Origin: a virus
Taxonomy: Duplodnaviria; Heunggongvirae; Uroviricota; Caudoviricetes
DNA length: 19,664 bases
Strand: one strand, 5' to 3'
IMG/VR virus record: IMGVR_UViG_2667527633_000005
Part shown: piece by piece, positions 1 through 16,873 of the stretch
How positions within the stretch are numbered: position 1 is the first letter of the stretch
How the letters are laid out: each line of letters starts with the position of its first letter
The notes under the pieces: generated by a model
Databases searched by the model: none
What the model was told of the DNA's origin: nothing
The model's input: the letters and a program-made list of their open reading frames with translations, nothing else
Position numbers and translations under genes: made by a program

Positions 1-177
1 CTACCNNNNNNNNNNTACTTTTGCGCCTCCCAGCCGGACCGGCGCTGCGGCGTAATACGCGGCAATTTCACCAATCCAGCCGGTCAGCCTTTCCCGCTGC
101 TCCTGACTGTTCGCGCCCAGAATAAAATCCATCGCTGACTGCGTATCCAGCTCACTCTCAATGGTGGCGGCATACAT
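1..177 (-). CDS. hypothetical protein, 5' portion only (runs off window start; N-run 6..15 inside)
   Basis: Minus-strand frame opening with ATG at 177..175 (MYAATIESELDTQSAMDFILGANSQEQRERLTGWIGEIAAYYAAAPVRLGG...). Absent from the ORF track because there is no stop in the window. No family recognised. Confidence 0.3.
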   Translation of the reverse strand: MYAATIESELDTQSAMDFILGANSQEQRERLTGWIGEIAAYYAAAPVRLGGAKVXXXX

Positions 178-257
178 CGCCTTTATGAAAAGACAGGAAA
201 AAATAAAATTTAAAAACAGTACATTACGAATGCTCAGACCTATCGTTTAAAGGAGTC

Positions 258-279
258 GCAATACACACTGCAATACACG
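258..279. repeat. left copy of 21-bp direct repeat gcaatacacaCtgcaatacac (two tandem GCAATACAC half-sites); candidate att/arm-type site at left island end
   Basis: Matches 10950..10970 (gcaatacacaTtgcaatacac) at 20 of 21 positions; a further GCAATACACA copy lies at 10920..10929 beside the integrase start. Confidence 0.45.
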
Positions 280-312
280 ATTATTTATAAGATGAGCGGC
301 ATCCGTCATAAA

Positions 313-551
313 GCTGGTGGATGCTTTTTCTATGCATATATGCACAGTTTTAGTGGGCGTTAATGTCGATATAGGGATCCCCATATCGAGATTGGATACC
401 TGGCTTTTTTCCGGTTAACCTTTAATCAGGCTGGTGGGCTTTACCTGTTTTGTATGAGTGGTCATCATGACCATGTCATAACAAAAACCCCATATTCGTG
501 GTTTTTCTGTGTCGGGCTATTCTGTCGTTGCTGTGCTGATTTGGCTGGTGG
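313..551 (+). other. cluster of three Chi octamers 5'-GCTGGTGG-3' in one orientation (313..320, 430..437, 544..551)
   Basis: Exact octamers read directly from the sequence within 240 bp of non-coding DNA; palindromes GTCGATATAGGGATCCCCATATCGA (367..392) and GGTCATCATGACC (461..473) lie between them. Confidence 0.75.
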
Positions 552-617
552 GCTGAATCATCATTACGGCGATGCAGCTATGTAGACGTTCCGGCCTCCT
601 CAAATTGAGGATTGTGG

Positions 618-778
618 AAGAATCAATGGGTTAGTCTTACTTTCCCGACATCCCCCAATGGGGGTTTTCGAAACAATCAATAGCTTAGGCTTACTTCCCC
701 GATTTCCTGCATTGCAGGTTTTCGAAATAATCAATGGGTTAGGCCATCGTGCAATTTTGCACTTTGCCAGCCAGCGCA
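618..778 (+). repeat. tandem ~55-bp repeat array (about 2.5 units), each unit with ATCAATGGGTTAG..CTTACTTCCCGA plus a short GC-rich hairpin followed by TTTTCGAAA
   Basis: Units begin near 622, 678 and 731. Hairpins: CCCCCaatGGGGG (about 652..668), CCTGCattGCAGG (706..718), GTGCAAttTTGCAC (759..772). A second repeat family GCCAGCGCAAT..CGCGTTATC occurs near 768..795 and 955..984. Confidence 0.6.
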
Positions 779-992
779 ATGTCGCGTTATCAGTCCTCAG
801 ATGTGAGGGATGTAGCCAGCTTTTCCCCCAGTGGGGGATATCCAGCACCGACGGCTTAACTGTGCGTGCCAGCACAAGGTAGCCTTGAACTACTTACTGC
901 ATCCCATCTTACAGGCCGTGCCTTCCTGCTTAACTTTTTGCAATGCAACAAGTCAGCCAGCGCAATTTTGCGTTATCGGGAATATCAGCAAG

Positions 993-1274
993 TTACCGCC
1001 GCAATCGTTCCGGCTTCTTCCACTGGTAAGTATTTTTCGCGCTCTCCCTCCGTTGTTGAGAACGGCGACGATATGCCAGCAACTCAAGGACTCTTGTTCG
1101 TATGTTGCGCATATCCACGCCGTTAAGCTCAATACCGTCACGGCGCATCACCTCAGCCACTACACGCACATAATTATCTGCGGTCACGCTGTCCGGCTGC
1201 GTGGCCTGTTCGTCATGCTGCTTGCTGATTCCACAAGCACGGCGGATTAATCGCAGTATTTCGGATTCAGTCAT
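993..1274 (-). CDS. hypothetical small protein (93 aa) with arginine-rich C-terminus
   Basis: ORF with ATG at 1274, directly downstream of the terS-like gene on the same strand; C-terminus RRRSQQRRESAK..KKPERLRR suggests nucleic-acid binding. Weak RBS, no family recognised. Confidence 0.4.
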   Translation of the reverse strand: MTESEILRLIRRACGISKQHDEQATQPDSVTADNYVRVVAEVMRRDGIELNGVDMRNIRTRVLELLAYRRRSQQRRESAKNTYQWKKPERLRR

Positions 1275-1356
1275 AGCGTACTACGTTACTTATCTTTATT
1301 CGGCTGCAACTTATCCGGTACGTTTCCGGCAGTTTCCATCAGATAATCGGACAGCA

Positions 1357-1827
1357 TCAGCGGTATGTTTTCGTCAAGTTTTGCGCATGCGTTACAGGCT
1401 CTGATAACTTCTTTTTCAGTCCATCCAGCATAGACGGCTTCATGTCGGGAAACTTCCTTGTCATGGCAAGCGGCAGGCTGTCCATGATTGAAGAAATCTG
1501 ACTCGCCAATTTTGAAAGCACGTATATACAAAACGCTGTATCAATAACGTCGCCGCGTTCGCGCTCGTTTTTAAGCTCCTGCGCCTCTGCCTGTGCTGTC
1601 AGCAATCTGATCCTGACTCGTAGGAGTTCATCATCATCAATCTCGCCTTTGTCGTCTGTAATCTGGTTAATTGCATTGCTAACCCGATTGTCTATTACGC
1701 TGGCAACATCATAAAACGCCTCGCGGCCTTTACGTTCAACGGGAGTCACTCCCCACTTGTCGAACGCTGTCGCACTTACACGGCAGCTTTGCGCCATGTT
1801 TTTTTTGTTCATCAGGTGCGATTTCAT
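1357..1827 (-). CDS. terminase small subunit, phage lambda Nu1-like
   Basis: LLTAQAEAQELKNERERGDVIDTAFCIYVLSKLASQISSIMDSLPLAMTRKFPDM aligns with lambda Nu1 (..RLTRAQADAQELKNARDSAEVVETAFCTFVLSRIAGEIASILDGLPLSVQRRFPEL) as I recall it. Start placed at ATG 1827 (GGGGA RBS 5 nt upstream); the track ORF begins at GTG 1839. Lies about 135 bp downstream of cosN, as in lambda. Confidence 0.85.
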   Translation of the reverse strand: MKSHLMNKKNMAQSCRVSATAFDKWGVTPVERKGREAFYDVASVIDNRVSNAINQITDDKGEIDDDELLRVRIRLLTAQAEAQELKNERERGDVIDTAFCIYVLSKLASQISSIMDSLPLAMTRKFPDMKPSMLDGLKKKLSEPVTHAQNLTKTYR

Positions 1828-1939
1828 CAATATCCCCACTTAAGTAATGTTTCAGGTTGGTGTATTGGCTTTATCTTTTCCTTTTTATTCATAGAGATAG
1901 AGCGAACAACAAAACCACCACCAGCACCCGAAAAAGGCT

Positions 1940-1990
1940 CATAAATAGCGAAAACCCGCGAGGTCGCCGCCCCGTAGCCTACCGGATCGC
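1940..1990 (-). other. lambda-type cohesive-end site (cosN core = reverse complement of 1961..1972, GGGCGGCGACCT, plus conserved flank)
   Basis: Minus strand reads ..ACG GGGCGGCGACCT CGCGGGTTTTCGCTATTTATGAg.., matching the lambda left-end/cosN sequence from memory; positioned immediately upstream of the Nu1-like gene. Confidence 0.8.
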
Positions 1991-2028
1991 CGGAAAGGAC
2001 CCGCCAGCCAGAACGGGCCCTAATTTCA

Positions 2029-2412
2029 TCAACCAATCAACTTATAGCGACCATCCCGTGCATTGCGACGTACACGCTCAATCTTGAGGCATAGCGCCGC
2101 ATCTGGCTTTTTTGGGACAGGTACGCGGCAATATTCAGAAGATCGAGGAATATTGTTTATCCAGTCGATCACTTCACTTAAATACCAGGCCTTACGCCCT
2201 TCCGTAACCTGCACACGCTCCGGGAACTCTCCACTAGCCTCAAGGTTTAGCAATGTGCGACGGCTAAGGGTAGTAAGTTCCATCACCTGATTCATATCAA
2301 CAAGGCGTTCACTTAAACGCATTTTGTCAGCAATAGCCTTTAATTCCTCTACTGCTGGATCCGGATACATCATTTCGGCAATTGGCTTAAGGTCATTGTA
2401 ATGATTCTGCAT
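2029..2412 (-). CDS. AlpA/excisionase-like HTH regulator (127 aa)
   Basis: Central segment MELTTLSRRTLLNLEASGEFPERVQVTEGRKAWYLSEVIDWI resembles the AlpA/Xis-type winged HTH; GGGGGA RBS 4 nt before ATG 2412; sits between the decoration gene and cos. Confidence 0.55.
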   Translation of the reverse strand: MQNHYNDLKPIAEMMYPDPAVEELKAIADKMRLSERLVDMNQVMELTTLSRRTLLNLEASGEFPERVQVTEGRKAWYLSEVIDWINNIPRSSEYCRVPVPKKPDAALCLKIERVRRNARDGRYKLIG

Positions 2413-2423
2413 TGTATCCCCCT

Positions 2424-2765
2424 TTACACACGAGCCAGCGGCTGAACAGAAATACCTGAGCCAACAAACGCGGCAACCTTTGCCGACAGTTCTTTTACAG
2501 ACTCAGGCCAGTTCAGAGCATCAACATTTAAAACACCTGTCTTATAAACCTGTGCCTGTGTTTTTTTCGCTGTGTCGATTTGTACAGCGGAAACATAAAC
2601 CGCTTTACCTACGCTCGAACCATCCCATACCACCAGTGCACCTGTTGCATCTTCCTGCATCAGTGGCGTAAATGCAGGAATTACCCCTTTATTAGCTGAA
2701 AATATCCCCAGCGTAGTCACCAGTGCTTCAGTGCCAGCCATGAGTTCAGTGTAATGAGTAGCCAT
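2424..2765 (-). CDS. head decoration protein, phage lambda gpD-like
   Basis: TPLMQEDATGALVVWDG..VYKTGVLNVDALNWPE..AAFVGSGISVQ parallels lambda gpD (TPLMLDTSSRKLVAWDG..FYKSGTFRYEDVLWPEA..TAFAGTAISIV, from memory); GGGGGAG RBS overlaps the stop of the upstream capsid gene. Confidence 0.8.
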   Translation of the reverse strand: MATHYTELMAGTEALVTTLGIFSANKGVIPAFTPLMQEDATGALVVWDGSSVGKAVYVSAVQIDTAKKTQAQVYKTGVLNVDALNWPESVKELSAKVAAFVGSGISVQPLARV

Positions 2766-2774
2766 TGCTCCCCC

Positions 2775-3815
2775 TTAGCCAATGCGAACGGTAACAAAAC
2801 GATTGATGCGGGCCGGTATTGGCTGTGGTGCTGAATGTGTCTGCACATATTCAATAGCCGGATCACCAGGCACAATATAGTTTTTCGGTGCAAGTTCGGC
2901 TTTAGTCAGCCCCATTCGGATTAGCTCCGGATCCTGAATACCGCCATAGGCGACAATCCCCTGAAGAGCCGTATTGCCAAGCACCATCAAATCAGGATCA
3001 AGGAAATGTTTTTCTGTTCCGTCCTCGTCGGTATAACGCCCGCTGTAAACAACAATCGCAACATCGCCCATATACCCTTTAAAACTCACCGAATCACCAA
3101 GGTCTTTAAGGGCCGTTTCCAGTTCGGAATTAGAACCACGACGGGTATCCAAAGCCTCTTTTATCGCTCTGAATGAACGGTATTTCTTCCATACATTACC
3201 ACCCATAATGATGATATTAGTGACGCCCTCACTAAATTCTGCGTAGCTCTCAATATCATCATTTGGATCAAAAGTTTCTTTATCCTTACCTGACCACTCA
3301 GTACCGCCAGACTGAGTGATGATATTTTGTGGTTTTATATTCCAGTCCAGCTCATAACGTTCAATACCATCGCCCTCAATGATATTTTTCCCCGTTGTGA
3401 TTGCCTGAACAGCAAGCCATTCAATACGTGCACGAATAGCTTTAGCCTGATTTACAATCGCCTGTTTAACTTTAATATTACGTGCCCCAAAAGCATTGTA
3501 TTGCTCAGGTGATACACCAGCAGGGCGCACAGCTAACTTATTTGGATCAATGCTGCTTTTCGGCTTCATATAGCCTGGACGAATTGTTTTTGATTCGTAC
3601 CCTTCGTCACGTGAAACTTTACTACCCACCATAGGAGAACAAAACGCTGCAATTGGGATATTTGGATCGTCGATTGTATCAAGAATAATATCGCGCGATT
3701 CAAACATTACCGAGCGAGTAAAAAACAAACTGGTAAACAACGCATTTAGTTGTTTTTGTACATCTACAGCATTAACCACCTGTACAAGCTGAGTAGGCGA
3801 ATATAAATCAACCAT
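2775..3815 (-). CDS. major capsid protein, phage lambda gpE-like
   Basis: Long collinear match to lambda gpE, e.g. NIITQSGGTEWSGKDKETFDPNDDIESYA..YRSFRAIKEALDTRRGSNSELETALKDLG..YMGDVAIVVYSG..MVLGNT. Start set at ATG 3815 (AAGAGG 6 nt upstream; aligns with the gpE N-terminus); the track ORF extends to 4028, but a stable hairpin at 3990..4020 argues against that extension. Confidence 0.85.
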   Translation of the reverse strand: MVDLYSPTQLVQVVNAVDVQKQLNALFTSLFFTRSVMFESRDIILDTIDDPNIPIAAFCSPMVGSKVSRDEGYESKTIRPGYMKPKSSIDPNKLAVRPAGVSPEQYNAFGARNIKVKQAIVNQAKAIRARIEWLAVQAITTGKNIIEGDGIERYELDWNIKPQNIITQSGGTEWSGKDKETFDPNDDIESYAEFSEGVTNIIIMGGNVWKKYRSFRAIKEALDTRRGSNSELETALKDLGDSVSFKGYMGDVAIVVYSGRYTDEDGTEKHFLDPDLMVLGNTALQGIVAYGGIQDPELIRMGLTKAELAPKNYIVPGDPAIEYVQTHSAPQPIPARINRFVTVRIG

Positions 3816-3989
3816 ACGCATCCTCTTTGCATTCATTAAAAATAATTGTGGATATATGCTACCACCGATATTTGTCATGCGAACACATGCAACCGAGTGC
3901 AATGTTGTATAAAGTTTTGGGGTGACAACTTCAGTGCGGACAATTAGTGTTAATATCTTCACTCCCTTTGGTCGGGATTTATGTAGCAT

Positions 3990-4020
3990 GCCGGAAAATT
4001 TATTTTTTCCGGCCTTTTTT
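3990..4020 (+). terminator. intrinsic-terminator-like hairpin (GCCGGAAAA-tttatt-TTTTCCGGC followed by a T-run), plus-strand orientation
   Basis: Perfect 9-bp stem 3990..3998/4005..4013 with T6 at 4015..4020, in the gap between the SSB-like stop (4032) and the capsid gene; on the minus strand it is a hairpin without a U-tract. Confidence 0.4.
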
Positions 4021-4031
4021 ATTGGCAATAT

Positions 4032-4481
4032 TTAAAACGGGATATCATCTCCCCATTGCTCATTATCTCCCACTGGTGGCTGGCTTCCTTGCTGATCTGC
4101 CTGTTGTTTTGCTCTGTTCAGTTCGTCAGTAGCCTGCCCCTGTTGGCCTTTTTTGCCGCCCGGTCGCGCCGTTCGCGCACTGATTACGCTGTCTGCGATA
4201 ACCTGCCAGCCCCGCCGCGTTTCGCCGTTCTGGCCTGTCCACTGGCTTACCTGCATGTTACCCGCCACGCTCACCAGTTCGCCTTTGTGGTGTTTTGCCA
4301 GTGCGTCGGCCTGTCTGCCAAACGCCAGGACGGATAACCACATCGTCGCCGTTCCGTCATCTGCCTGGCTGCACGGCAGGGGAACCGCCATACTCGCCAT
4401 CGCCATTTGTGTCCCTTTGCTGGTGGTCTTTAACTGCGGGTCAGCCACCAGCCGCCCGTAAGCCGCTATCTGTGCTGTCAT
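4032..4481 (-). CDS. single-stranded DNA-binding protein-like (C-terminal acidic DDIPF tail)
   Basis: Ends ..NEQWGDDIPF, the hallmark SSB C-terminal tail, preceded by a Gly/Gln-rich linker and an N-terminal domain compatible with an OB fold; overlaps the upstream ORF by 4 bp. Confidence 0.65.
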   Translation of the reverse strand: MTAQIAAYGRLVADPQLKTTSKGTQMAMASMAVPLPCSQADDGTATMWLSVLAFGRQADALAKHHKGELVSVAGNMQVSQWTGQNGETRRGWQVIADSVISARTARPGGKKGQQGQATDELNRAKQQADQQGSQPPVGDNEQWGDDIPF

Positions 4482-4792
4482 GCTGTCTGCTCTCCGGTTT
4501 TAACATTGATGGTTGTCACCTGTTCCGCTTCGGCAATCTCCCGTTCTGTCAGCGTGGCAAAGTTTGCCGCTGCTGTGGTCATGAATGCGCTTATCAGGTC
4601 GGGATGTTCCTTCGCGTATCCTGCCCGTGTGTGGTGGTCTATCGCTTTGATTGCCACCTTTAAGGAAAGCTCTGTCATGTCTAACGCTTTATATTTTGCC
4701 TGTGTTCTGTCTCTGCGAATTTTGGTCATTTGTCGCCCCTGATTCATGTTTTCGGCTGGCATGTTTATTAAGTGATTTTTATGTATGCGCAT
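4478..4792 (-). CDS. hypothetical protein (104 aa; start uncertain, several in-frame ATGs)
   Basis: ORF immediately downstream of the iteron origin and translationally coupled to the SSB-like gene; no family recognised. Confidence 0.45.
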   Translation of the reverse strand: MRIHKNHLINMPAENMNQGRQMTKIRRDRTQAKYKALDMTELSLKVAIKAIDHHTRAGYAKEHPDLISAFMTTAAANFATLTEREIAEAEQVTTINVKTGEQTA

Positions 4793-4843
4793 TTATTTTC
4801 ACCCCCCCCTCGTTTAAAAAGTTTTTAGTTGTGCCTCCCCCCC

Positions 4844-5061
4844 TCTACCCATCTACCCGAATGCTCATCATGTCAGTAATGGCGCGGCTTTCAGCGGGTA
4901 GATAGCTTTTTGACTCCTCTACCTGCCGTCTACCCTGCTACCTGAAACTGATAAAATCAGGTAGAAGAGGTAGAGAGCTTTTATTAGCCTTCTACCTAGC
5001 CCTATACCCACTTATCATGTTGAATAATATGCGTTTATTTTGTTCAGGTAGATGGGGTAGA
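4844..5061. repeat. iteron array (TCTACC forward, GGTAGA inverted; at least 10 copies) with adjacent AT-rich DNA: putative replication origin of the island
   Basis: TCTACC at 4844, 4852, 4918, 4929, 4991; GGTAGA at 4897, 4960, 4969, 5047, 5056 (pairs spaced 8-11 bp); AT-rich stretches at 5018..5045 and 5066..5090; immediately 3' of the primase/helicase gene. Confidence 0.6.
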
Positions 5062-5077
5062 TGGCTTTTACAAAAAA

Positions 5078-6832
5078 TTATAAAAACGCGTCGCAATCGT
5101 CTGTTGTAATTGCGTTGGTCTGCGTTACTCCCTTAACTTTTCGCGTAATATATTCATGCCCGTAAACTTTCGCCGCTGGCTTCATGGCCTTGCTGAACTC
5201 AGCCACGTTTAGCGGTTTGCTCCTGCCCGCGTATGCCATAAACGCCAGATAGACGCGGTAAAGGCTGTTCCTGGTCGTGTACTTCACTGAATCACCACCG
5301 CCACCCATCATCAGGCCGCGCGCTTCCTCCAGAAAATTCAGGAACTGGCAAAACTCAATAACCGGATCCGTCTGTTGCTTTATTGCCAGTGCTTCATCAC
5401 CGTCACGCTGTTCCAGTAGTAAAGCCCGTGCCTTCTCAGGGTCGGTAAAGTTCGCCAGCAATCGGCGGATAATAACGGGGATTTCAGCCGCAATCTTTTC
5501 CGGTAGCTCCCTGTCTTTTTCGGCCTCACTGACGATATTGTCGAAACGGAAAATCACGCGACGACGTGCCACACCTCCGGCCCGTTCGGTGAATATCATC
5601 GGGTTGTTGTTGGTCGCCAGCACCACCGCCCTGATTACCGCCGTGAAACGCTTTTCATATTTCGGGTTAATTTCCACGGGGTCGCCGCCTGTGATTTTCT
5701 TGATGCCCGTTCCTTCGCCTGTATATTTCGGCTGGTCAGCCAGGACGATAAGACGACTCCCGACAACCTGCGCACGTCCACCAGCATCATCAAGCGATGT
5801 CATTTCAGCGCTTACCGTGTTCTGTTTCCCTGCCAGAAGGCTGGCTATGTGTGTGAATGTACTTTTACCGCTCCCGCCGTCTCCGGTGGCCTCAATAAAC
5901 ATCTGCCAGTCGTACCGGTTCGCCATAATCATGTACAGCGCGGCACATATACGCATCATCTTGCGCGGGTCTTTTCCGGCTGCGTGCTCAAGCCATTTAT
6001 GAAAGTTTGGCGCGTTATCGCGGATGTTCTCCCCTGGTGCTGGTGGCGTGTACTCAATGCCGTTGTGCGTGGTGATCCAGTTCTCCGGCGTGTGCGGGGA
6101 AAATTCCCCCGTTTTCAGGTCAAGCGCACCATTGGCGAACGGCAGCAAATCGCCAGACGGCTCGCCCATTGGTTCGGCAATAACTTTTAACGCTTCCACG
6201 GCGTTATTGATTACGCGCTTGCTGAAAGTGGCCCTGTGCTCTGAATAGATCGCCACCATTTCGCGGCTAAGTTCCATTGTGCTGACCGGACACCATACCC
6301 CGCCGCGCCATACGTGAACGATTTCACTTTCAGGATGTACGCAAACGCCATCAAAGCGATCGGCAAGCAACTGCGCGCGCTCACTGTCCGCCATCTGCGA
6401 AAGTTGCGCCTTTTGCTTTACCGGAAGCTCAATGACCAGACCATCAGAAAGATTCTGGCGTTCACGGGCCAGATATTCGCGCCAGTTCTGCACCTCCTGG
6501 CCGTGCATACCCTCAGGATAAAAATTTGCATCCTGTACGCCTGCTGCCGCCAGCTTCTGACCAATCGCCTTTATCATTACAGGCGCAAGATATCCGGCCC
6601 TGTATATGCGTGCTGATTTTCGGCCTTCCGGCACAATTTGCAGATTATCCAGTTCGGATAGCTGCTGCTCCCCAAGCCACACAGGAGGCTCATTATCTCC
6701 GGCCATACGCGCATCATGTTCCTGCCATTGTTTCGCGTGTGCCCAGGCATCACTACCCGCAAAAATAATGACTTCTGTTCCTTTGTGTTTTATGCCGCGT
6801 GACTGCTGTTTTACGTTCGGTGCCAGTTTCAT
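5078..6832 (-). CDS. P4-family primase/helicase (Pri-Rep-like replication initiator)
   Basis: 584-aa ORF with Walker A IEATGDGGSGKSTFTHIASLLAGK and a C-terminal region typical of phage/plasmid P4-type primase (D5_N/SF3 helicase-like); the position (small ORFs, pri, then iteron ori) matches satellite replication modules. Confidence 0.9.
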   Translation of the reverse strand: MKLAPNVKQQSRGIKHKGTEVIIFAGSDAWAHAKQWQEHDARMAGDNEPPVWLGEQQLSELDNLQIVPEGRKSARIYRAGYLAPVMIKAIGQKLAAAGVQDANFYPEGMHGQEVQNWREYLARERQNLSDGLVIELPVKQKAQLSQMADSERAQLLADRFDGVCVHPESEIVHVWRGGVWCPVSTMELSREMVAIYSEHRATFSKRVINNAVEALKVIAEPMGEPSGDLLPFANGALDLKTGEFSPHTPENWITTHNGIEYTPPAPGENIRDNAPNFHKWLEHAAGKDPRKMMRICAALYMIMANRYDWQMFIEATGDGGSGKSTFTHIASLLAGKQNTVSAEMTSLDDAGGRAQVVGSRLIVLADQPKYTGEGTGIKKITGGDPVEINPKYEKRFTAVIRAVVLATNNNPMIFTERAGGVARRRVIFRFDNIVSEAEKDRELPEKIAAEIPVIIRRLLANFTDPEKARALLLEQRDGDEALAIKQQTDPVIEFCQFLNFLEEARGLMMGGGGDSVKYTTRNSLYRVYLAFMAYAGRSKPLNVAEFSKAMKPAAKVYGHEYITRKVKGVTQTNAITTDDCDAFL

Positions 6833-7128
6833 TTTTTACCTCTGAATCCGTTAATCATGGTTTTCATTTTCTGGATATTTCCCCACGCTTTTTCCCTGCT
6901 GATGGGCTTACTGCGGGGTGCGGCATATACCAGGGGAAAATCACGCCGGAACTGATAAACAGGCATCACGCAGTCATAGCTATACCCCTCACGGCGGTAA
7001 GTGATGCGCCGTTCTGCCACGCCTTTAATCGTTACCGTGCCGCCGTATTTATCGCGGTAAATATCGCCGTTCATAAATTCAGGTCGAGCGGGGCCGCTGG
7101 CAATAAAGCCAGAATTTTTCATTTCCAT
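6829..7128 (-). CDS. hypothetical protein (99 aa)
   Basis: ORF overlapping the primase start by 4 bp (coupled); no family recognised. Confidence 0.5.
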   Translation of the reverse strand: MEMKNSGFIASGPARPEFMNGDIYRDKYGGTVTIKGVAERRITYRREGYSYDCVMPVYQFRRDFPLVYAAPRSKPISREKAWGNIQKMKTMINGFRGKK

Positions 7129-7145
7129 ATTATTTATTCCTCGAC

Positions 7146-7367
7146 TTAACTCGACTTATTTGATAGCAGGGCACTATTTATTGCGTCATTGAGTTTTTCT
7201 GCTGATTCATCAATAAGTGACAACAGGCCATAAGCAATATTTGCATCTTCATTGTCATTTATGCAATCAAGCCACATATTTAATATTGCTTTTGCTGAAT
7301 TATTTAAAGTTAATGAACTTTCTGCACATGCTAACAATTTAAAAAAGACTTCCCGTTCTGTATTCAT
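7146..7367 (-). CDS. hypothetical protein (73 aa), encoded in a visibly AT-rich segment
   Basis: ORF in the same operon string; local base composition is much more AT-rich than the flanking genes. Confidence 0.4.
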   Translation of the reverse strand: MNTEREVFFKLLACAESSLTLNNSAKAILNMWLDCINDNEDANIAYGLLSLIDESAEKLNDAINSALLSNKSS

Positions 7368-7559
7368 TTAATCCCCCACCAGCTTACTTTCTTCCTCAAT
7401 CAAAAAACTAGCGACACTTCCCGAAAGACGCGCCAGTAGGCTCGCCAGTGCGGATATATCAGCATCTGTAATTTTGTTCGGGTATACCTCAAGAAGGCGG
7501 CAAATAATTTCTGTCTGGTGCGCACGTTCAGCGGCTTCGTGTAATGTAATTTCCTGCAT
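7368..7559 (-). CDS. hypothetical protein (63 aa)
   Basis: ORF abutting its neighbours with no gap (7367/7368; shares nt 7559 with the upstream ORF). Confidence 0.4.
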   Translation of the reverse strand: MQEITLHEAAERAHQTEIICRLLEVYPNKITDADISALASLLARLSGSVASFLIEEESKLVGD

Positions 7560-7744
7560 TAATGCACCTCTTTTAATTCATACACTGCTGAAATAATGAC
7601 TTGTGATAAGCCATATTCTGATGATTCGCTTCTCACCGCAGCAATAGCCGTCTGAACATTAACAGCCTTCACATTCTGAGCGATACCAATTGTGTGGCCT
7701 ATTGGGTTAACAGCTCGGGCAAATACACGGAAGGTTTTAAGCAT
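7559..7744 (-). CDS. hypothetical protein (61 aa), first gene of the leftward operon
   Basis: ATG at 7744 preceded by GGGAG (6-nt spacer); lies immediately downstream of the divergent control region. Confidence 0.45.
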   Translation of the reverse strand: MLKTFRVFARAVNPIGHTIGIAQNVKAVNVQTAIAAVRSESSEYGLSQVIISAVYELKEVH

Positions 7745-8025
7745 GACTCACTCCCTGGCGGATTTTTGCAGCGAATACAGCAACACAACCGGACGGGCAA
7801 CGGCTACGCGCTTCGCGTTCCGTCCAGGCGGTTACGTGGATGATTTGAGATTCTCCGGCACTCAGTGCCAGAAAACGCCACACAAAGGCCGTTTGTGTGT
7901 GTACAAGGTGTGGTATATGATTTACAGCAACCATAACGGCTCCTAGTTTACGTTGTTGGTTAGACGCCCCGTATGTGTTCCCAGCACTGCGGGGCGTTGC
8001 TCTTTGTATTTCAACAATCCTTTCG

Positions 8026-8103
8026 GTGTGTTTCATGTTATGAGCGCATGAAACACACGTCAAGGCTTTTTGTATTTCTTTTTTTGTGTATACTGAAACA
8101 CAC
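8026..8103. promoter_or_regulatory. operator-like sites in the divergent control region: GTGTGTTTCATG-N9-CATGAAACACAC (8026..8058) plus a third TGAAACACAC (8094..8103) overlapping a TATACT -10-like hexamer (8089..8094)
   Basis: Perfect 12-bp inverted repeat read directly; located 20-100 bp upstream of the RHH gene start (8125, AGGAG RBS) and within the 380-bp gap separating the two divergent transcription units. Confidence 0.5.
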
Positions 8104-8124
8104 CGATGATTAGGAGTTTCAGAA

Positions 8125-8430
8125 ATGGCAACGGCTAACAAAAACGCAAAATCACAACTGACAACTGTCAGAGTCCCACTAGATGTTATGCAAGGGATGG
8201 AATCCGTTAAGCTGGACGGTGAAAGCAATGCCGGATTTATCGTAACCGCCATGCGCGGAGAAATAGCCCGCCGCCAAGCAGAAGGCAGCGGAGAAAATCC
8301 CCTTGTGTCGTCACTGGATGCCCTGGCTAAGGTCGAACAAATCGGCATCAAAGCAGCCGAGGAGATCGGGCAACTCGTCACCGTCGCGCGTGAAGAACTC
8401 CAGCGACGCAAGGTCAAAGAGCATGAATAG
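8125..8430 (+). CDS. ribbon-helix-helix (CopG/Arc-like) DNA-binding protein; candidate island repressor
   Basis: N-terminal LTTVRVPLDVMQGMESVKLDGESNAGFIVTAMRGEI has the strand-helix-helix pattern of RHH regulators; strong AGGAG RBS; transcribed opposite to the main island operon. Confidence 0.55.
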   Translation: MATANKNAKSQLTTVRVPLDVMQGMESVKLDGESNAGFIVTAMRGEIARRQAEGSGENPLVSSLDALAKVEQIGIKAAEEIGQLVTVAREELQRRKVKEHE

Positions 8431-8487
8431 CCAATATCAGCGCCATAGTTTGAGGAACGCAGGCGCATTGCTTTACAGGACAGCACC

Positions 8488-8667
8488 ATGAGCGACACAG
8501 AATCAACCAAAACACCATCACCAACTCGTAAGAGACGACGCAAAAATATAGCGCATGAACATGAATCAGAAAGATTCGCACCTTGTTCGTTTGCTCTTGA
8601 GAAATTCCTTAAAGAGCACAGGAAAAAGCTCTCGTTGCAAACCTTGGAACGAACCAAATCTGACTGA
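8488..8667 (+). CDS. hypothetical small basic protein (59 aa)
   Basis: ATG 8488 to TGA 8665..8667 (MSDTESTKTPSPTRKRRRKNIAHEHESERF...), below the ORF-track length cut-off; follows the RHH gene and precedes a strong terminator. Confidence 0.4.
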   Translation: MSDTESTKTPSPTRKRRRKNIAHEHESERFAPCSFALEKFLKEHRKKLSLQTLERTKSD

Positions 8668-8733
8668 TCACATTGCCCACCAGCCGCAAATGTGGCATTG
8701 TTGGTGATGCTTTTGTTTTCCCTTGTTCCCACT

Positions 8734-8765
8734 GGCGACCCTTTTGCGGTCGCCTTTGTTTTGTC
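8734..8765 (+). terminator. rho-independent terminator (GGCGACC-cttttgc-GGTCGCC followed by TTTGTTTTGTC)
   Basis: 7-bp GC-rich stem with T-rich tail, read directly; placed between the convergent plus-strand pair and the Bro-N gene. Confidence 0.6.
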
Positions 8766-9342
8766 ACTGAATGCGGTTACCAAAGTAAAACTCAGGCTGA
8801 TATTCACGTATCAGCGTTTTTTCTTCTTCCTCCAGCTCACGCTTTTTGCGCTTACATGCCTGTAGCTCCCTCCCCTTCTCGCTGGCACTTATTTGATATT
8901 GCTCTTTACGGCGGGAAAAATCCTGTAATGCACCCCACGGGATACCATAAGTCCCCGTTTTTCTGATACCTGGTATCACATTTCTGAATACCCAGTTACT
9001 GAAACGATGAGCAAATGTGCCAGGCGTCGTTGCTTTGCGGCTGCGGGCTATTAGTTTGTAGAAACCTGACTCAGAGATAATTCTCATATTCTGATTTCCT
9101 CCTGGGGTGTAAGTTAAATTTACTCCCTTTTCATCATCATCAAGCATCTGCAACGCCGTACGCGAATTGGTTAGTTCCAGCGCAGCACAAACATCTTTTG
9201 CAACAAACCACGGATCGCCGTTCAGATACACCACACGAACGTTCACACTATCAAAGCGCAGAACGACGAGATCACGAATATCGCAGAATTTTTTCACTGG
9301 ACGAGCGTACCCCTTGCCCGTCACGGCAATATTTTTATTCAT
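8764..9342 (-). CDS. Bro-N domain protein (phage antirepressor-like) with coiled-coil C-terminus
   Basis: N-terminal region (..NGDPWFVAKDVCAALELTNSRTALQMLDDDEK..) is typical of Bro-N/AntA DNA-binding domains; C-terminus is charged and heptad-like (RELQACKRKKRELEEEEKTLIREY). Confidence 0.75.
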   Translation of the reverse strand: MNKNIAVTGKGYARPVKKFCDIRDLVVLRFDSVNVRVVYLNGDPWFVAKDVCAALELTNSRTALQMLDDDEKGVNLTYTPGGNQNMRIISESGFYKLIARSRKATTPGTFAHRFSNWVFRNVIPGIRKTGTYGIPWGALQDFSRRKEQYQISASEKGRELQACKRKKRELEEEEKTLIREYQPEFYFGNRIQ

Positions 9343-9362
9343 CGCGTTTTTACCTTATAGAC

Positions 9363-9385
9363 AAAAAACCCCTCGTGATGAGGGG
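9363..9385 (-). terminator. rho-independent terminator on minus strand (CCCCTC-gtgat-GAGGGG; U-tract from the A6 run 9363..9368)
   Basis: Hairpin 9369..9385 directly downstream of the alpA stop (9399), followed on the minus strand by six U. Confidence 0.5.
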
Positions 9386-9398
9386 CATTATTTACTGG

Positions 9399-9656
9399 TT
9401 ATTGCTGTTTTGTTTTTCCAGGTTTCCATCCAGGATGCCACTCACCACGGATCCATGCCTGAACCTCTGAAAGTCGATACCCTGCAGCACGTTCACCGAT
9501 CTTGATACGTCGCGGGAATTTACCTGCCTGCTCCATTTTCCAGCGTGTTGAGTTTGCCAGCGTGGTAAGTGCTATGCACTCTTTTTCACGAATGAACCGA
9601 TCAATGTCCTTCATTGTGCGCAAATCGTTTTCATCAACAAGAGAATAAATTGCCAT
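9399..9656 (-). CDS. alpA: AlpA-family transcriptional regulator / excisionase-like protein
   Basis: 85 aa; ..CIALTTLANSTRWKMEQAGKFPRRIKIGERAAGYRLSEVQAWI is typical of AlpA (prophage CP4-57 regulator family); start is 2 bp after the integrase stop. Confidence 0.85.
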   Translation of the reverse strand: MAIYSLVDENDLRTMKDIDRFIREKECIALTTLANSTRWKMEQAGKFPRRIKIGERAAGYRLSEVQAWIRGEWHPGWKPGKTKQQ

Positions 9657-9657
9657 A

Positions 9658-10899
9658 TCACACCACCTCTTTATTAAGCTCGATAACGTTGTTGTTAAAT
9701 CCTGCTATCGTATTAAGGTAATTAACCCACATATTAAGCACCTCAAGTTTTTTCTTTATATGCCTGCTTTTATTGTAAACACCAGCAACCCCTTTCACTT
9801 TATGACCTAAAAGAAGTTCGACAATATAAGGATCCGCCCCCATATCATTAAGCGTAGTGGAAAATGTGCGCCTGAAATCATGTATGCACCACAAGCCATT
9901 AGTATCATGACCAAGACGCCTGCATATTCTGTTTGCAGCCCCTGTTATTGTCGCCCTTTGCAAAGCACAACCGACAACATAACCGCGATTTTTTGTTTCT
10001 GCGTAAAGATTAACGATCCATTGTTTTATTCCGTCAGGAACAGGCCTTACTATAGCCTCCTTGTTTTTGCTGTGCTCTTTTGGGACTGTCCATACCCAGT
10101 TTTTTAAATCCCATTCGTCCCAGGTGGATAGCCTCGCCTCCTGCTGTCGGCAACCAAACACCAGGCAGATAACCATTATTCTTCGGTTATATATTGATGA
10201 CAGAGTTAGCAAATTATTACCGTAAGCATAAGACCATACATCAGCGGTTTCATTGATATTAAGAACGCGATCCCTTATACCGGATGAGCGCCCGACATAA
10301 CTTACGTTAATATCTCCAAAGGGATCGCACGCGATGTATTGCCTGACGCGACAAAAACGCAACGCCTGTTTGATATCAAGAAAAATTGCACCAGACATAA
10401 CAGGCGCATTTTTTTTGATCCTGTCAAAGACGGTAAGCCATGTGTGTAATTTGCACTGTTCTATAGCCATATCACCGATATAGGGGAAGATATGCTTTTC
10501 AAATCGTTTTATTAAATATTCATGCTCTTTTCTGGCTGTTGTGGCGTGATTGTCGTACCAGTAAAACAGCGCATCCCTTACGGTCACTGGTTGCATAGTT
10601 TTTTCGGCAGCAAGTTTTATTTGCCTGCGGGGGTCCAGATTTTCAGCCAGCCATTCACGGCACTGATCACGCATGCGCCTGGCCGTTGCAAGAGACATGT
10701 CAGGATAGCGACCAAGTGTAAGCCATACCGGAGGGGATTCCCTGCCACCAAGACGATAGTAAAAAACAAAGCTGATCCCCCCAACCATGCTTACACGCAC
10801 AGACAACCCGCGCCCATCCGCTATTGTTTTTTGTTTGTCCTGCCGTTTTCCGACAAGACTCTTTAACAGTTTGTCACTGAGTTTGTTTTCAATAGCCAT
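9658..10899 (-). CDS. int: tyrosine site-specific integrase, P4-type
   Basis: 413 aa; N-terminal arm-binding-like region (LSDKLLKSLVGKRQDKQKTIADGRGLSVRV..FYYRLGG); C-terminal catalytic motifs HDFRRT..LLGH..GVY; GAGGG RBS 7 nt before ATG 10899. Confidence 0.95.
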   Translation of the reverse strand: MAIENKLSDKLLKSLVGKRQDKQKTIADGRGLSVRVSMVGGISFVFYYRLGGRESPPVWLTLGRYPDMSLATARRMRDQCREWLAENLDPRRQIKLAAEKTMQPVTVRDALFYWYDNHATTARKEHEYLIKRFEKHIFPYIGDMAIEQCKLHTWLTVFDRIKKNAPVMSGAIFLDIKQALRFCRVRQYIACDPFGDINVSYVGRSSGIRDRVLNINETADVWSYAYGNNLLTLSSIYNRRIMVICLVFGCRQQEARLSTWDEWDLKNWVWTVPKEHSKNKEAIVRPVPDGIKQWIVNLYAETKNRGYVVGCALQRATITGAANRICRRLGHDTNGLWCIHDFRRTFSTTLNDMGADPYIVELLLGHKVKGVAGVYNKSRHIKKKLEVLNMWVNYLNTIAGFNNNVIELNKEVV

Positions 10900-10919
10900 T
10901 AAAAGCCCTCAAGAGATTT

Positions 10920-10970
10920 GCAATACACACCCATCCCGATCGCCAATTTGCAATACACATTGCAATACAC
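10920..10970. repeat. right copies of the GCAATACACA repeat (10920..10929; 21-mer gcaatacacaTtgcaatacac at 10950..10970); candidate attR/arm-type or AlpA/Int operator sites
   Basis: Direct repeat of 258..278 (20/21 identical); located in the integrase promoter region. Confidence 0.45.
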
Positions 10971-11174
10971 AAAACCGCGAAAAACTGGAAGGGTGATGAA
11001 CGGTCATCAAAAGCATGGAAAACGACATTCCAGACGCAGCAAGGGTTTCAGTGGAGTTGGCGAACGATGCGGGCAACTACGGTGAGATGATAGACATAAA
11101 TCGCCTTCACAATGGCGCTCTGCAGCTGCGTGTTCTGCAGCGTGTCGAGCATCTTCATCTGCTNNNNNNNNNNT

Positions 11175-11468
11175 GCCGGTTTTAAGGGGTTAATTTCTTC
11201 AAAAGTCAAATCTCGCCCGCAATGCTGTGACGATGACGCGATGATCATTTGTGGATGTATGGCTCGCCTGAAAAAAAACAACAGCGATTTGCATGATTTA
11301 TTGGTGGACTATTATGTCGGCGGCATGACTTTTATGGCGCTTGCACGTAAGCATGGGCGATCTGATTGTTGGGTTGGCAGGATGCTCCAGAAAGCTGAGG
11401 GCGTAGTGGAGGGCATGCTGATGGTGTTGGATCTCCGATTGGAGATGGATGCTGATTGTTCGAAATAA
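11175..11468 (+). CDS. phage antitermination protein Q-like, C-terminal portion (N-terminus lies across the N-run 11164..11173)
   Basis: ..[68 protein letters not shown]..: Cys cluster plus a sigma-region-4-like HTH, resembling small lambdoid Q proteins (DLP12 QuuD type, from memory). Context supports this: a terminator about 100 bp downstream and a lysis cassette further on. The track ORF's MALCSC.. N-terminus across the Ns is probably not real. Confidence 0.4.
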
Positions 11469-11566
11469 TTAAAAGAAAAGTTGCTGTCTGATTGTCATTA
11501 GTCTAACATTTTAAATGTTGGAATCGCAACGTAGTTATTATCATATAACAGCTTGTTTCCTGATTT

Positions 11567-11598
11567 AGCCAGCCTCCCCAAAGGCTGGTTTTTTTTCT
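11567..11598 (+). terminator. rho-independent terminator (CCAGCC-tccccaaa-GGCTGG + T8), tR'-like position downstream of the Q-like gene
   Basis: Hairpin 11569..11588 and T-run 11589..11598 read directly; a possible -35/-10 (TTGTCA ..TTAAAT) lies near 11495..11525. Confidence 0.55.
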
Positions 11599-11624
11599 AA
11601 TAAGTATCATTTCGGGTAGGGATT

Positions 11625-12149
11625 TTATTGTTTAACCCATAATAATTCATTGACATTGAATCCCAGCTTTTGAGCGGTTCGCACATAGTCTGCTTTTACT
11701 TTATCTGGAATAGTTGGGGTCCTTGCCAGAATCCATAGGTATTCTCTGTTCGGACCACTGACAAGAGCATACTTATACTCATCATCCAGTTTGATTACAT
11801 TATAGCCACCATAGAAGGGGCCAAAAAACGAAACCTTCAACGCTGCAGTTTTAGTATCTCCAGTAAAGTATGCTTTACCTTCGCTCTCGCTCCATTTATT
11901 TTTCGTTGGATCGTATCCACGGTTAAGTACACGAATCCCTCCGTCGTTCCGTTTTCCATAAGTAGCGCTGACCTGTTCCAGACCACGTTCGAACCGGTTC
12001 TCGAGGCGAGCTATTTCATACCATTTTCCGAGATAGCGGTTGGCGTCAAAATTTGTAATCGGCTGCACACCTTTAGGTGGTGTCGGGGCCTTACATGCTA
12101 TAAGAGTGAAAGAGAGTGCAATGCCAGTCAACACAGGCCATAACTTCAT
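11625..12149 (-). CDS. blc: outer-membrane lipoprotein lipocalin Blc
   Basis: Lipoprotein signal ..LTGIALSFTLIACKAP then NFDANRYLGKWYEIARLENRFERGLEQVSATY..GKAYFTGDTKTAALKVSFFGPFYGGYNVIKLD..YLWILARTPT, clearly Blc-like but only moderately similar to E. coli K-12 Blc; start set at ATG 12149 (AGGA RBS) rather than the track's 12209. Confidence 0.85.
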   Translation of the reverse strand: MKLWPVLTGIALSFTLIACKAPTPPKGVQPITNFDANRYLGKWYEIARLENRFERGLEQVSATYGKRNDGGIRVLNRGYDPTKNKWSESEGKAYFTGDTKTAALKVSFFGPFYGGYNVIKLDDEYKYALVSGPNREYLWILARTPTIPDKVKADYVRTAQKLGFNVNELLWVKQ

Positions 12150-12341
12150 AATAAATCCTGTACTTTTGATAGTTGAGGGTAAGTATGAAAGATAGATGAT
12201 TACGACCAATCACTTAAAGAACTTTTATACTATATTAGGAATAGTCCATAACAGAAAAATTGTCAGTGATGACGCCAGAAAGGCAATTTATTCCGTGCAC
12301 TACACAGTTTATCTGTTAATGAATTAGTCAAGGGGGAGGAT

Positions 12342-13301
12342 ATGATAAAAAAACCTGTGATTGGAATCAGCGGTTGTTTGGCCGGTTCTGCTGTTCGTTT
12401 TGATGGTGGTCACAAAAGAGCTGACTTTTTAATGGACAAATTAGTGGAATGGGTAACATTCAGACCAGTATGTCCGGAAATGGCTATAGGGCTGCCAGTT
12501 CCGCGTCCTGCTCTACGTCTTGTGCGCTCGACGCAAGGAAATATACGGATGTGTTTCAGCCACGACCAGAATGAGGATGTGACAGAGAGAATGACAGAGT
12601 TTAGTCGTTCTTATATGGACAAATTAAAGGATGTATCGGGGTTTGTGGTTTGTGCTAAATCTCCCAGCTGTGGCATGGAGCGCGTGCGTGTCTATGATGA
12701 AAATGGTAATCGAGGTCGTAAAGATGGAGTGGGACTATTTACGAGCACTTTGATGGAAAAGTTTTCTTGGCTACCGGTTGAAGAGGATGGGCGATTACAT
12801 GATCCAGTGCTTCGTGAGAATTTTGTTGAAAGAGTTTTTGCTTTGCATGAGCTCAATCACCTTTACAAGGAGAAATTATCAAGAAGAGAGTTATTAGCTT
12901 TTCATAGTCGTTATAAGCTTCAGTTGTTGGCGCATAGTCAGGCAGGCTATAAAGATATGGGACCATTTGTGGCTGCAATACACGAGTGGGCGGACCTTGA
13001 ATCATTCTTTGAGGTGTATCGTGATAAGCTGATGGCGATTCTCATAAAACCTGCATCACGTAAAAATCACACGAATGTGCTGATGCATATACAGGGGTAT
13101 TTTAGTAACTACTTAAGTACACGCCAGCGTAAAGAGTTGAGCGAGGTTATACTTAACTATCGTTCTGGCACATTGCCTCTTCTTGCGCCGTTGACTCTGC
13201 TGAAGCATTATCTGGGTGAGTATCCTAATGATTACTTGCTTACACAGAATTACTTCGATCCCTATCCGGAAGAACTGGCTTTAAGACTGATGGTGAATTA
13301 A
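12342..13301 (+). CDS. DUF523 (TudS-like) / DUF1722 fusion protein
   Basis: N-terminal domain with three spaced cysteines (GISGCLAG, PVCPE, SPSCG) as in DUF523 [4Fe-4S] proteins, C-terminal half YbgA/DUF1722-like; strong RBS AAGGGGGAGG; AT-rich gene. Confidence 0.6.
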   Translation: MIKKPVIGISGCLAGSAVRFDGGHKRADFLMDKLVEWVTFRPVCPEMAIGLPVPRPALRLVRSTQGNIRMCFSHDQNEDVTERMTEFSRSYMDKLKDVSGFVVCAKSPSCGMERVRVYDENGNRGRKDGVGLFTSTLMEKFSWLPVEEDGRLHDPVLRENFVERVFALHELNHLYKEKLSRRELLAFHSRYKLQLLAHSQAGYKDMGPFVAAIHEWADLESFFEVYRDKLMAILIKPASRKNHTNVLMHIQGYFSNYLSTRQRKELSEVILNYRSGTLPLLAPLTLLKHYLGEYPNDYLLTQNYFDPYPEELALRLMVN

Positions 13302-13780
13302 CTGTATGCGATATCATCTGAAAGTGATGAGTTCCTGCATGCAGGATATTTACAATCGTAAAAACTACACTATGATACCCATAGTGTCAGTTTGTATAAA
13401 AATCCTGTTCACGCTGAAGAAAATATTGAGATGCAATTTAATGTTGGTAAATATACCAGCCCCAAAATATTTTATTCAATCTGTTTTTATATAAAGATAT
13501 TTCAAGCGAATATTAAGAGCATATAATATTATTATTGCACGCAGCTATTATAATATAACAGATTAGTTTAATGATTTTTTGCGAGTTAAACACATGCTTT
13601 TATAGTTGTGATGCAATGAGATTTTCCTTATTGTTGAACTGGCGAATATTGATTACCCACCTATACTTACCTGGTGTAACCCCAATGATATCAGGTGGAT
13701 AATATGCCATACATATGTTCTATGGTGATGCCTCTAATTAGTTGAGTCTGATGTATAATACGGGCTTTTGAGGTTATCTC

Positions 13781-14053
13781 ATGGCCAGAGTTAATATTCA
13801 TTGTCCCCGTTGTCAGTCAGCTCAGGTTTACCGCCATGGTCAGAACCCTAAAGGCCGTGACAGATTTCGCTGCCGTGACTGCCACCGTGTGTTTCAGCTC
13901 ACTTATACTTATCAAGCACGTAAGCCGGGTATGAAAGAGCGGATAACTGAAATGGCCTTTAATGGTGCCGGGGTTCGCGATACCGCCAGGACACTGAAAA
14001 TTGGTATTAACACCGTCATCCGGACTTTAAAAAACTCGCGCCAAAGCGAATAA
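13781..14053 (+). CDS. insA: IS1 transposase InsA
   Basis: MARVNIHCPRCQSAQVYRHGQNPKGRDRFRCRDCHRVFQLTYTY.. has the same zinc-finger/HTH pattern as IS1 InsA ([45 protein letters not shown].., from memory). Confidence 0.85.
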   Translation: MARVNIHCPRCQSAQVYRHGQNPKGRDRFRCRDCHRVFQLTYTYQARKPGMKERITEMAFNGAGVRDTARTLKIGINTVIRTLKNSRQSE

Positions 14054-14439
14054 CTTCTTCGCCTGTTGCCCATGCTGATGTGGCGCTTATCTGCGAGCTT
14101 GATGAGCAATGGAGCTACGTTGGCAGTAAAGCCCGGCAACACTGACTCTGGTACGCGTACAACACCAAAACAGGCGGTGTACTGGCCTACACTTTTGGTC
14201 CCCGAACCGATCAAACGTGCCGGGAGCTACTGGCACTGCTTACACCCTTCAATATCGGCATGCTGACCAGCGATGACTGGGGCAGCTATGGCCGGGAGGT
14301 GCCGAAGAATAAGCATCTGACCGGCAAAATATTCACCCAACGCATTGAGCGTAATAATCTGACGCTACGCACCCGTATTAAGCGGTTGGCTCGTAAAACA
14401 ATCTGCTTCTCACGCTCAGTTGAGATCCACGAAAATTAA
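14029..14439 (+). CDS. insB: IS1 InsB segment (-1 frame; expressed as InsAB' by programmed frameshift at TTAAAAAAC 14027..14035)
   Basis: -1 frame encodes ..[73 protein letters not shown].., matching the IS1 InsB catalytic region; ends at TAA 14437..14439, earlier than canonical InsB. Confidence 0.7.
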
Positions 14440-14606
14440 TTCTTGAAGAGCGAATGGTGATGGCGGAAAGGTTATTAAGCTACAATTTATATTCTGTTGG
14501 GAAAGTTGCTGAGATATGCGGTTATGAAAATACGTCATATTTTGTAAGTGTTTTCAGAAGATATTTTGGTGTTCCTCCCCACAAATATTCATCAAGATTT
14601 TTTTAG
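14440..14606 (+). pseudogene. AraC-family regulator, C-terminal HTH remnant (5' part deleted at the IS junction)
   Basis: Frame encodes ..MAERLLSYNLYSVGKVAEICGYENTSYFVSVFRRYFGVPPHKYSSRFF*, the second HTH of AraC/XylS proteins; no N-terminal part upstream of the IS; left boundary approximate. Confidence 0.55.
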
Positions 14607-14684
14607 AAAAACACATGATGTAACGTGATGCGTTTTAATGATTTTGTAATTTTCGTATTTGATAATTTTATGATGCTTTCAGCT

Positions 14685-14716
14685 ACGCCAGAATAATCGC
14701 TGGCGTTTTTCTTTTT
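14685..14716 (+). terminator. rho-independent terminator (ACGCCAG-aataatcg-CTGGCGT + T-run)
   Basis: 7-bp stem 14685..14691/14700..14706 followed by TTTTTCTTTTT; downstream of the AraC remnant. Confidence 0.6.
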
Positions 14717-14812
14717 GAATAGATGTTCAGGCCTTACGCTAATGTAACTTCTATACCTTTCCCTCTTCGTTCCGAACCGTGTACACCATCCGTTATTTGC
14801 GGAGGTGAGGCT

Positions 14813-15028: not shown

Positions 15029-15032
15029 TTCA

Positions 15033-15615: not shown

Positions 15616-15720
15616 AAACAATCCTCTCTATTGTATTTAACTATTCCTTGCCTGATTCAACAGGCCGGGACAGATAAACATATCCAGGGTTCAGAAACCG
15701 ATAAATCCTGATAAATATCC

Positions 15721-16718: not shown

Positions 16719-16873
16719 TAGCGATAATTTTACTCATCATCCTTCACATCTGGCTCTGTAGNNNNNNNNNNCCTGTCACGCCCGGATTTTTTACAGGCGT
16801 TACCTCATTTTCATCTTTTTCATTCACTGCTCGCTGACGACAGTTACGGGCAGATTATCCATAAGGAACAGGT

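Follow-up and report, generated by a model that had tools for sequence, protein, structure and literature searches.

An iteron array downstream of pri as the probable replication origin of an EcCICFT073-type Gram-negative PICI, with a layout resembling phage P4 ori

The window, that is, the whole 19,664-bp stretch of DNA that was analyzed, contains an array of short repeats at 4844–5061, directly 3′ of the initiator/helicase gene pri. With a probability that we put at about 0.9, this array is the vegetative replication origin of an EcCICFT073-type Gram-negative PICI. The feature is a close allele of the one experimentally tested Gram-negative PICI origin, and the class itself is already known: its position and iteron architecture were published in 2018 (PMC6092414). 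The new part is modest and comprises the apparent homology of the repeat unit to that of phage P4, the co-variation of iterons and initiator domain in natural recombinants, modules whose order can be swapped, and two further invariant elements that are not iterons.

Iteron array and its two modules

The window has 12 copies of the hexamer GGTAGA/TCTACC, 10 of them within 4844–5061, five per strand, just as the sequence-only reading of this DNA had described. On the plus strand, TCTACC starts at 4844, 4852, 4918, 4929, and 4991, and GGTAGA at 4897, 4960, 4969, 5047, and 5056. Two further copies with one mismatch (GCTACC at 4937 and TATACC at 5003) stand in register with the other iterons. The start-to-start distances inside the iteron pairs are 8, 11, 9, and 9 bp, which agrees with the 8–11 bp proposed earlier, and the alignment of the copies gives an extended consensus of roughly C-N-TCTACC-Y. 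The other two hexamers of the window, at 17292 and 17969, are both outside the island. Neither orientation of the motif was found elsewhere in the island, including every other intergenic region, so the island has a single 218-bp array without a second cluster. When all hexamers were counted on both strands in 218-bp spans, the largest cluster had 10 copies in the window but 4–6 in sequences simulated 200 times with a first-order Markov model. The Poisson probability of such a cluster was about 1.6e-9 after correction for every hexamer and every start position.

The array begins 17 bp past the pri stop codon. The 285-bp gap assigned to this place by the sequence-only reading does hold the array, but its far border, an ORF start at 4792, is less likely than a start at 4729, which is favored because phrog_1231 aligns to residues 22–103 and the RefSeq annotation agrees. 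With this start the non-coding gap spans 4730–5077 (348 bp). The AT-rich DNA and C-runs reported for the gap were also recovered: C8 at 4802–4809, C7 at 4837–4843, and stretches of 18%–26% GC (5009–5046, 26%; 4943–4959, 24%; 4810–4826, 18%). No DnaA box was found in 4730–5077 with one mismatch allowed, a scan of 4400–5300 revealed neither a sigma-70-like promoter nor a terminator, and no Rfam family matched anywhere in the island at the gathering threshold.

The array consists of two units in inverted orientation, with the center of dyad near 4951. Module A, proximal to pri, starts with an iteron pair (5047–5061, minus strand), two TCTACC copies on the pri-coding strand 9 bp apart, which is kept in 11 of 11 representatives of the relatives described below. 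It is followed by a 38-bp AT-rich spacer (5009–5046), the candidate site of first melting and the counterpart of the AT-rich spacer in P4 ori. Next come the inverted iterons (4991–5008, minus strand), read on the coding strand as GGTAGA at 4991–4996 and a degenerate GGTATA at 5003–5008, and then a distal pair of coding-strand TCTACC (4960–4974, minus strand), represented by three copies in EcCICFT073 and in the Shigella locus L002. A central AT-rich spacer (4943–4959) with the inverted repeats I1, I2, and I9 forms the dyad center between the modules. Module B opens with a triple of inverted iterons (4918–4942, minus strand), whose coding-strand starts are 4942 (degenerate GGTAGC), 4934, and 4923; the distances of 8 and 11 bp inside this triple correspond to those of 10 and 11 bp in P4 ori. 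A single iteron of opposite orientation (4897–4902, minus strand), a spacer with 54% GC, and a terminal pair with iterons 8 bp apart (4844–4857, minus strand) complete the module. The inverted arrangement of the units explains both the inverted repeats found in the array and its stable fold as single-stranded DNA (z = −4.3). We take this fold to be a consequence of the inverted iterons, and it lends no support to a hairpin origin.

Two elements of this region are not iterons. The spacer of module B contains CTGAAAGCCGCGCCATTACTG (4874–4894, minus strand), which is near-invariant among representatives whose other spacers diverge; a spacer that is both GC-rich and invariant suggests a second function. 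Beyond module B lies the invariant A5-C-T5 element AAAAACTTTTTAAACGA (4810–4826, minus strand), followed by a G8 homopolymer on the coding strand (4802–4809, minus strand). Module B is always followed by AAAACTTTTTAAACGA on the coding strand, even where the order of the modules is swapped, and the invariant stretch between the array and the next ORF consists of AAAACTTTTTAAACGA, the G-run, and TAAAAATAAA. The elements at 4874–4894 and 4810–4826 may be sites for a host factor or for priming, or promoter elements. The G-run between the origin and the next gene is variable in length, with 6–10 G among loci with identical Pri and 5 G in most other alleles; the variation could be sequencing noise, or the run could be prone to slippage and perhaps influence a promoter or ribosome-binding site downstream.

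The modules appear to be separable units, since their order is swapped in three relatives (L067, L069, and L078). There, in the 310 nt that follow the stop codon, the triple/single/pair unit comes first and is followed, after about 90 bp, by the pair/AT-rich/single/triple unit.

Pri, the island, and the tested EcCICFT073 allele

The pri gene (pri-rep; 5078–6832, minus strand) encodes a 584-aa initiator/SF3 helicase assigned to NCBIfam TIGR01613, “phage/plasmid primase, P4 family.” It contains the Pfam domains D5_N, DUF5906, and Pox_D5, the last of them at the cut-off score, and residues 190–432 match an SF3 primase-helicase structure (PDB 7OLA, E 3.7e-15). The helicase half of the earlier designation of this gene as a primase/helicase is borne out by these domains; the primase half is not, since in an alignment with P4 alpha and the Morganella locus L004 Pri lacks about 190 columns and, with them, the zinc-ribbon/Toprim primase domain that both possess. 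At the C-terminus, residues 488–576 (5105–5371, minus strand) match the origin-binding domain of P4 alpha (PDB 1KA8) in a phmmer search with an E value of 8e-6. Judging from this match, the C-terminus of Pri is homologous to that domain and is the presumed reader of the iterons. Residues 1–152 (6377–6832) have no match in Pfam or NCBIfam and match only phrog_2850, a family of unknown function. This N-terminal domain behaves as a shuffled module, since one relative (L073) carries the window-type domain on a different helicase. In a search for homologous proteins, the matches listed were all near-identical proteins of E. coli and Shigella.

The genes of the island are on the minus strand and encode an integrase (9658–10899), AlpA (9399–9656), a Bro-N protein (8764–9342), an Icd-like protein, a DUF4222 protein (6829–7128), and Pri, followed after the gap by an 83-aa protein, SSB (4032–4481), a lambda-E-type capsid protein (2775–4028), a decoration protein, an HTH protein (2029–2412), and TerS (1357–1839, phrog_57). 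Gram-negative PICIs have their genes in this order. Of the features by which origins of this group are recognized, the array 3′ of pri, the int-alpA-pri order, iteron groups with AT-rich spacers, and homology to EcCICFT073 were found. An exact lambda cosN, GGGCGGCGACCT, is present at 1961–1972 (minus strand), between the HTH gene and terS, and is probably the packaging site of the island. The DUF4222 gene overlaps the start codon of pri by 4 nt and occupies the position that ORF106 (DUF5375) has upstream of alpha in P4. In P4, ORF106 is the regulator cnr, which binds to the origin-binding domain of alpha; that the DUF4222 protein might have a comparable role in copy control is speculation.

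The island is about 10.9 kbp in size (window ~186–11095) and corresponds to positions 10487–21396 of NZ_AP045067 (L001, E. coli JNE23-011). There it splits the portal gene of a lambdoid prophage, in the same orientation, into fragments at L001 9704–10486 and 21397–22230. This split of a portal gene by an island on the same strand identifies a helper-embedded PICI as described by Mageeney et al. (2023; PMC10111431), whose list of integration sites includes B:Phage_portal_2 and who note an ori downstream of pri without dissecting it. The left flank of the window (16–1400) matches the portal fragment at 100%. The flank on the int side is rearranged at about 11175, where some 80 bp of a portal fragment are followed by genes of the opposite strand (~11175–19664), including a Q antiterminator fragment, lipocalin, YbgA, IS1 InsA (13781–14053), a P21-type holin, lysozyme, and Rz. 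This junction was not found in 5426 complete E. coli genomes, and with such a rearranged junction excision could probably not restore the interrupted portal gene here. Of the 5426 complete E. coli genomes, 442 (~8%) have a match to the 451-bp segment that surrounds the array, always in the chromosome.

The sequence of EcCICFT073 was taken from the CFT073 chromosome (L087). Its Pri-Rep is 98% identical to Pri of the window (571 of 584 residues), and the gaps between pri and the next gene are 82% identical and have the TCTACC iterons and the invariant flanking motifs in common. The proposal of an iteron origin 3′ of the primase/helicase gene is supported by this likeness, and the replication test for which the sequence-only reading had asked has, in effect, essentially been done on this sister allele. 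A thermosensitive plasmid carrying pri-ori of EcCICFT073 makes colonies at the restrictive temperature, the Δpri-ori plasmid makes none, and with the pri-Δori plasmid colony numbers were “significantly reduced” but not reported as abolished (Fillol-Salom et al. 2018, ISME J, PMC6092414). According to the published primers as mapped here, the Δori clone ends 4 nt past the pri stop (L087 12000, window 5074) and the wild-type clone at about L087 12307 (window ~4770). The segment missing from the Δori clone is thus L087 12001–~12307, equivalent to window ~5073–4770, so that the array lies inside the ori as delimited by experiment.

The two alleles share gene order, Pri, iterons, and the arrangement of two iteron sets around AT-rich DNA, but differ in detail. 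The distal group of module A has two copies in the window and three in EcCICFT073, the triple of module B has three copies in the window and two in EcCICFT073, and the G-run comprises 8 residues versus 5. The window island carries terS and is located inside a prophage portal gene, whereas EcCICFT073 occupies a chromosomal site adjoining phoQ.

Relationship to phage P4 and iteron type among relatives

The GenBank annotation (NC_001609) and PDB 1KA8 served as sources on P4. The annotation places type-1 repeats both in ori (9310–9413, within ori 9086–9809) and in crr (4291–4590), the latter directly 3′ of alpha. The layouts can be compared in a simple notation, in which F is an iteron in forward orientation on the helicase-coding strand, R is an inverted one, and numbers are start-to-start distances in bp. 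In P4 ori, the alpha-coding strand gives FF(10)-45-R-20-F(11)F(10)F, module A of EcCICFT073 and of the Shigella locus L002 reads FF(9)-46-R-22-F(11)F(9)F, and module B of the window, on the other strand, reads FF(8)-45-R-21-F(11)F(8)F′. P4 and the window therefore have in common the unit of two direct iterons, about 45 bp, one inverted iteron, about 20 bp, and three direct iterons. They also share the C-terminal origin-binding domain, a helicase of the D5/P4 family, and an iteron cluster directly 3′ of the helicase gene, which in P4 is crr. Pri shares 42% of its helicase residues and 31% of its origin-binding-domain residues with P4 alpha. Moreover, P4 crr units contain the CTGAAA motif of the CTGAAAGCCGCGCCATTACTG element and end in an A-run/T-run, AAAAAAAACTTTTTT, like the A5-C-T5 element. 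In other respects P4 differs from the window. Its type-1 iteron is TGTTCACC instead of the TCTACC core, its ori and crr lie about 4.7 kb apart and are both required in cis, whereas the window has one compact array, and its alpha protein possesses the N-terminal zinc-ribbon and Toprim primase domain that is missing in Pri.

SaPI origins are reported to have sets of iterons on either side of AT-rich DNA located 3′ of rep (Ubeda et al. 2007, as summarized in PMC6092414). The window resembles them in the position after the initiator gene, in the two iteron sets around AT-rich DNA, and in a self-loading SF3-type helicase as the initiator; the iteron sequences, however, are unrelated and the host belongs to a different phylum. 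As a refinement of the earlier comparison, the closest mechanistic relative would be P4 alpha with its ori and crr, rather than the SaPI origins. A plasmid-type RepA/Pi iteron origin, with direct repeats of 17–22 bp and DnaA boxes, was rejected as a model since the core of the array is a hexamer in both orientations without a DnaA box.

The relatives examined were 80 IMG/VR loci and 3 genomes. Every locus with at least 70% Pri identity had 9–12 TCTACC/GGTAGA copies in the 450 nt past the stop codon, with variable bases flanking the core. Among 11 representatives with mutual identity below 93%, the iteron core columns were 94% conserved compared with 72% in the rest of the gap (Mann-Whitney p = 1e-12). 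Loci with 53%–55% Pri identity kept the layout but used other iterons, either TGTTCAC(C), the type-1 iteron of P4, or TGTTCAT. Iterons CTGTTCAC(C) were found in L003 (Serratia), L073, and L078, and GTGTTCAT in L004 (Morganella) and L080.

Comparison of the proteins by domain points to the origin-binding domain as the determinant of iteron type. Relative to L003, L078, and L080, the window shows 62%–64% identity in the helicase but only 32%–36% in the origin-binding domain. Conversely, the origin-binding domains of the TGTTCA type are 39%–76% identical to each other even where the helicases share only 42%–52%. Two recombinants are especially informative. L167 combines a helicase 81% identical to the TGTTCAT lineage with an origin-binding domain 51%–64% identical to the TCTACC clade, and has one TCTACC unit. 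In L073, whose iterons are TGTTCACC, a P4-like helicase and a P4-like origin-binding domain are joined to an N-terminal domain that hardly differs from those of the window and CFT073. At the level of sequence comparison, these two natural recombinants show that the iteron type follows the origin-binding domain and not the helicase or the N-terminal domain. At a fine scale this rule is not one-to-one, since in the TGTTCAT clade the iteron variant GTATAC poorly tracks the substitutions of the origin-binding domain.

When L084 and L088–L124 were compared with L080 and L125–L147, which have near-identical helicases, many arrays were found to carry GGTATACAT at 6–7 positions in place of GGTGTTCAT, plus 0–3 iterons of the old type. 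One variant of the origin-binding domain occurs with both types of array, so that the initiator may accept either type, or recombination may be going on among the arrays. The pair L080 and L084 (identical helicase, 90% identical origin-binding domain, change from GTGTTCAT to GGTATACAT) was considered as a natural experiment and discarded, because the same domain variant is accompanied by TGTTCAT-only arrays in L125, L129, L130, L142, and L147. No iteron array was found in the 330 nt past the gene in L152 and L157–L163, which are contigs of 14–98 kb (mostly phage-sized, 32–98 kb) encoding a homologue with a different N-terminus; an origin, if any, must lie elsewhere in them.

Proposed initiation, alternatives, and significance

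The following scheme of initiation is consistent with these data. After induction and excision, the P4-alpha-like winged-helix origin-binding domain at the C-terminus of Pri would bind the (C)TCTACC(Y) iterons. The unit to be recognized would comprise two iterons 9 bp apart, a gap of about 45 bp, one inverted iteron, a gap of about 21 bp, and two or three iterons, and it is present in two inverted copies. Pri would assemble and oligomerize on both clusters, melt the AT-rich spacers 5009–5046 and 4943–4959, which are the predicted melting sites, and load itself as the replicative helicase without DnaA. In a putative division of labor, module A would act like P4 ori and module B like P4 crr. We lean, if only slightly, toward a broader evolutionary interpretation, in which the PICI origin represents the P4 ori unit duplicated in compact, inverted form, with an ori-like module A and a crr-like module B that can be separated. 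P4-like satellites and Gram-negative PICIs would then share an ancestral initiator/origin cassette, whose specificity was reset from TGTTCAC to TCTACC by exchange of the origin-binding domain of about 90 aa together with the iterons.

Other explanations of the array were weighed. P4 keeps crr, and not ori, directly 3′ of alpha, with ori about 4.7 kb away, and module B contains the CTGAAA and A-run/T-run motifs of P4 crr units; the array might accordingly be only a crr-like cis enhancer, a second cluster of initiator-binding sites, while replication starts elsewhere in the island. This is unlikely, since pri and the gap alone were sufficient for plasmid replication in EcCICFT073 (PMC6092414). 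In addition, module A has the exact layout of P4 ori with its AT-rich spacer, and the lack of another TCTACC/GGTAGA cluster in the island argues against a second P4-style origin. The same lack speaks against an operator shared with other promoters. It is still less likely that the repeats are binding sites for AlpA, the HTH protein (2029–2412), or an autoregulating Pri, controlling the SSB, capsid, and terS genes. Such a role would fit the location of the array between two blocks of genes, the invariant stretch from AAAACTTTTTAAACGA to TAAAAATAAA ahead of the next ORF, and the G-run whose length varies as in some phase-variable promoters. However, the scan of 4400–5300 gave no promoter or terminator, the iteron type tracks the origin-binding domain of the adjacent helicase in the recombinants, and deletion of the region impairs replication of EcCICFT073 (PMC6092414). 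A regulatory role may nevertheless exist alongside the origin function.

Binding of the small terminase to the repeats as part of a cos or pac packaging signal is very improbable. Although the island encodes its own TerS, and lambda cosB likewise has repeated sites in both orientations, the exact lambda cosN adjoins terS on its upstream side, some 3 kb away from the repeats, which therefore are not cos; besides, the same array occurs in EcCICFT073, which according to the literature is devoid of terS. Chance or low-complexity repetition without function can practically be dismissed. Nothing more than the shortness of the motif speaks for it, while the corrected probability is on the order of 1e-9, clusters of even 7 copies were absent from all 200 simulations, the core stays conserved between drifting flanks, and the layout recurs with different iterons in other genera.

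Interpreted as the origin of an EcCICFT073-type PICI, the array matters little as a discovery, since its function has already been demonstrated for an allele with a 98% identical initiator. It is of value for annotation, being a stretch of DNA present in about 8% of complete E. coli genomes that RefSeq leaves unannotated. The P4-type unit, the co-variation of origin-binding domain and iterons, and the swappable modules provide natural specificity variants for studying how a self-loading SF3 helicase reads its origin. The same variants could be used to address the question of how co-resident satellites avoid cross-talk.
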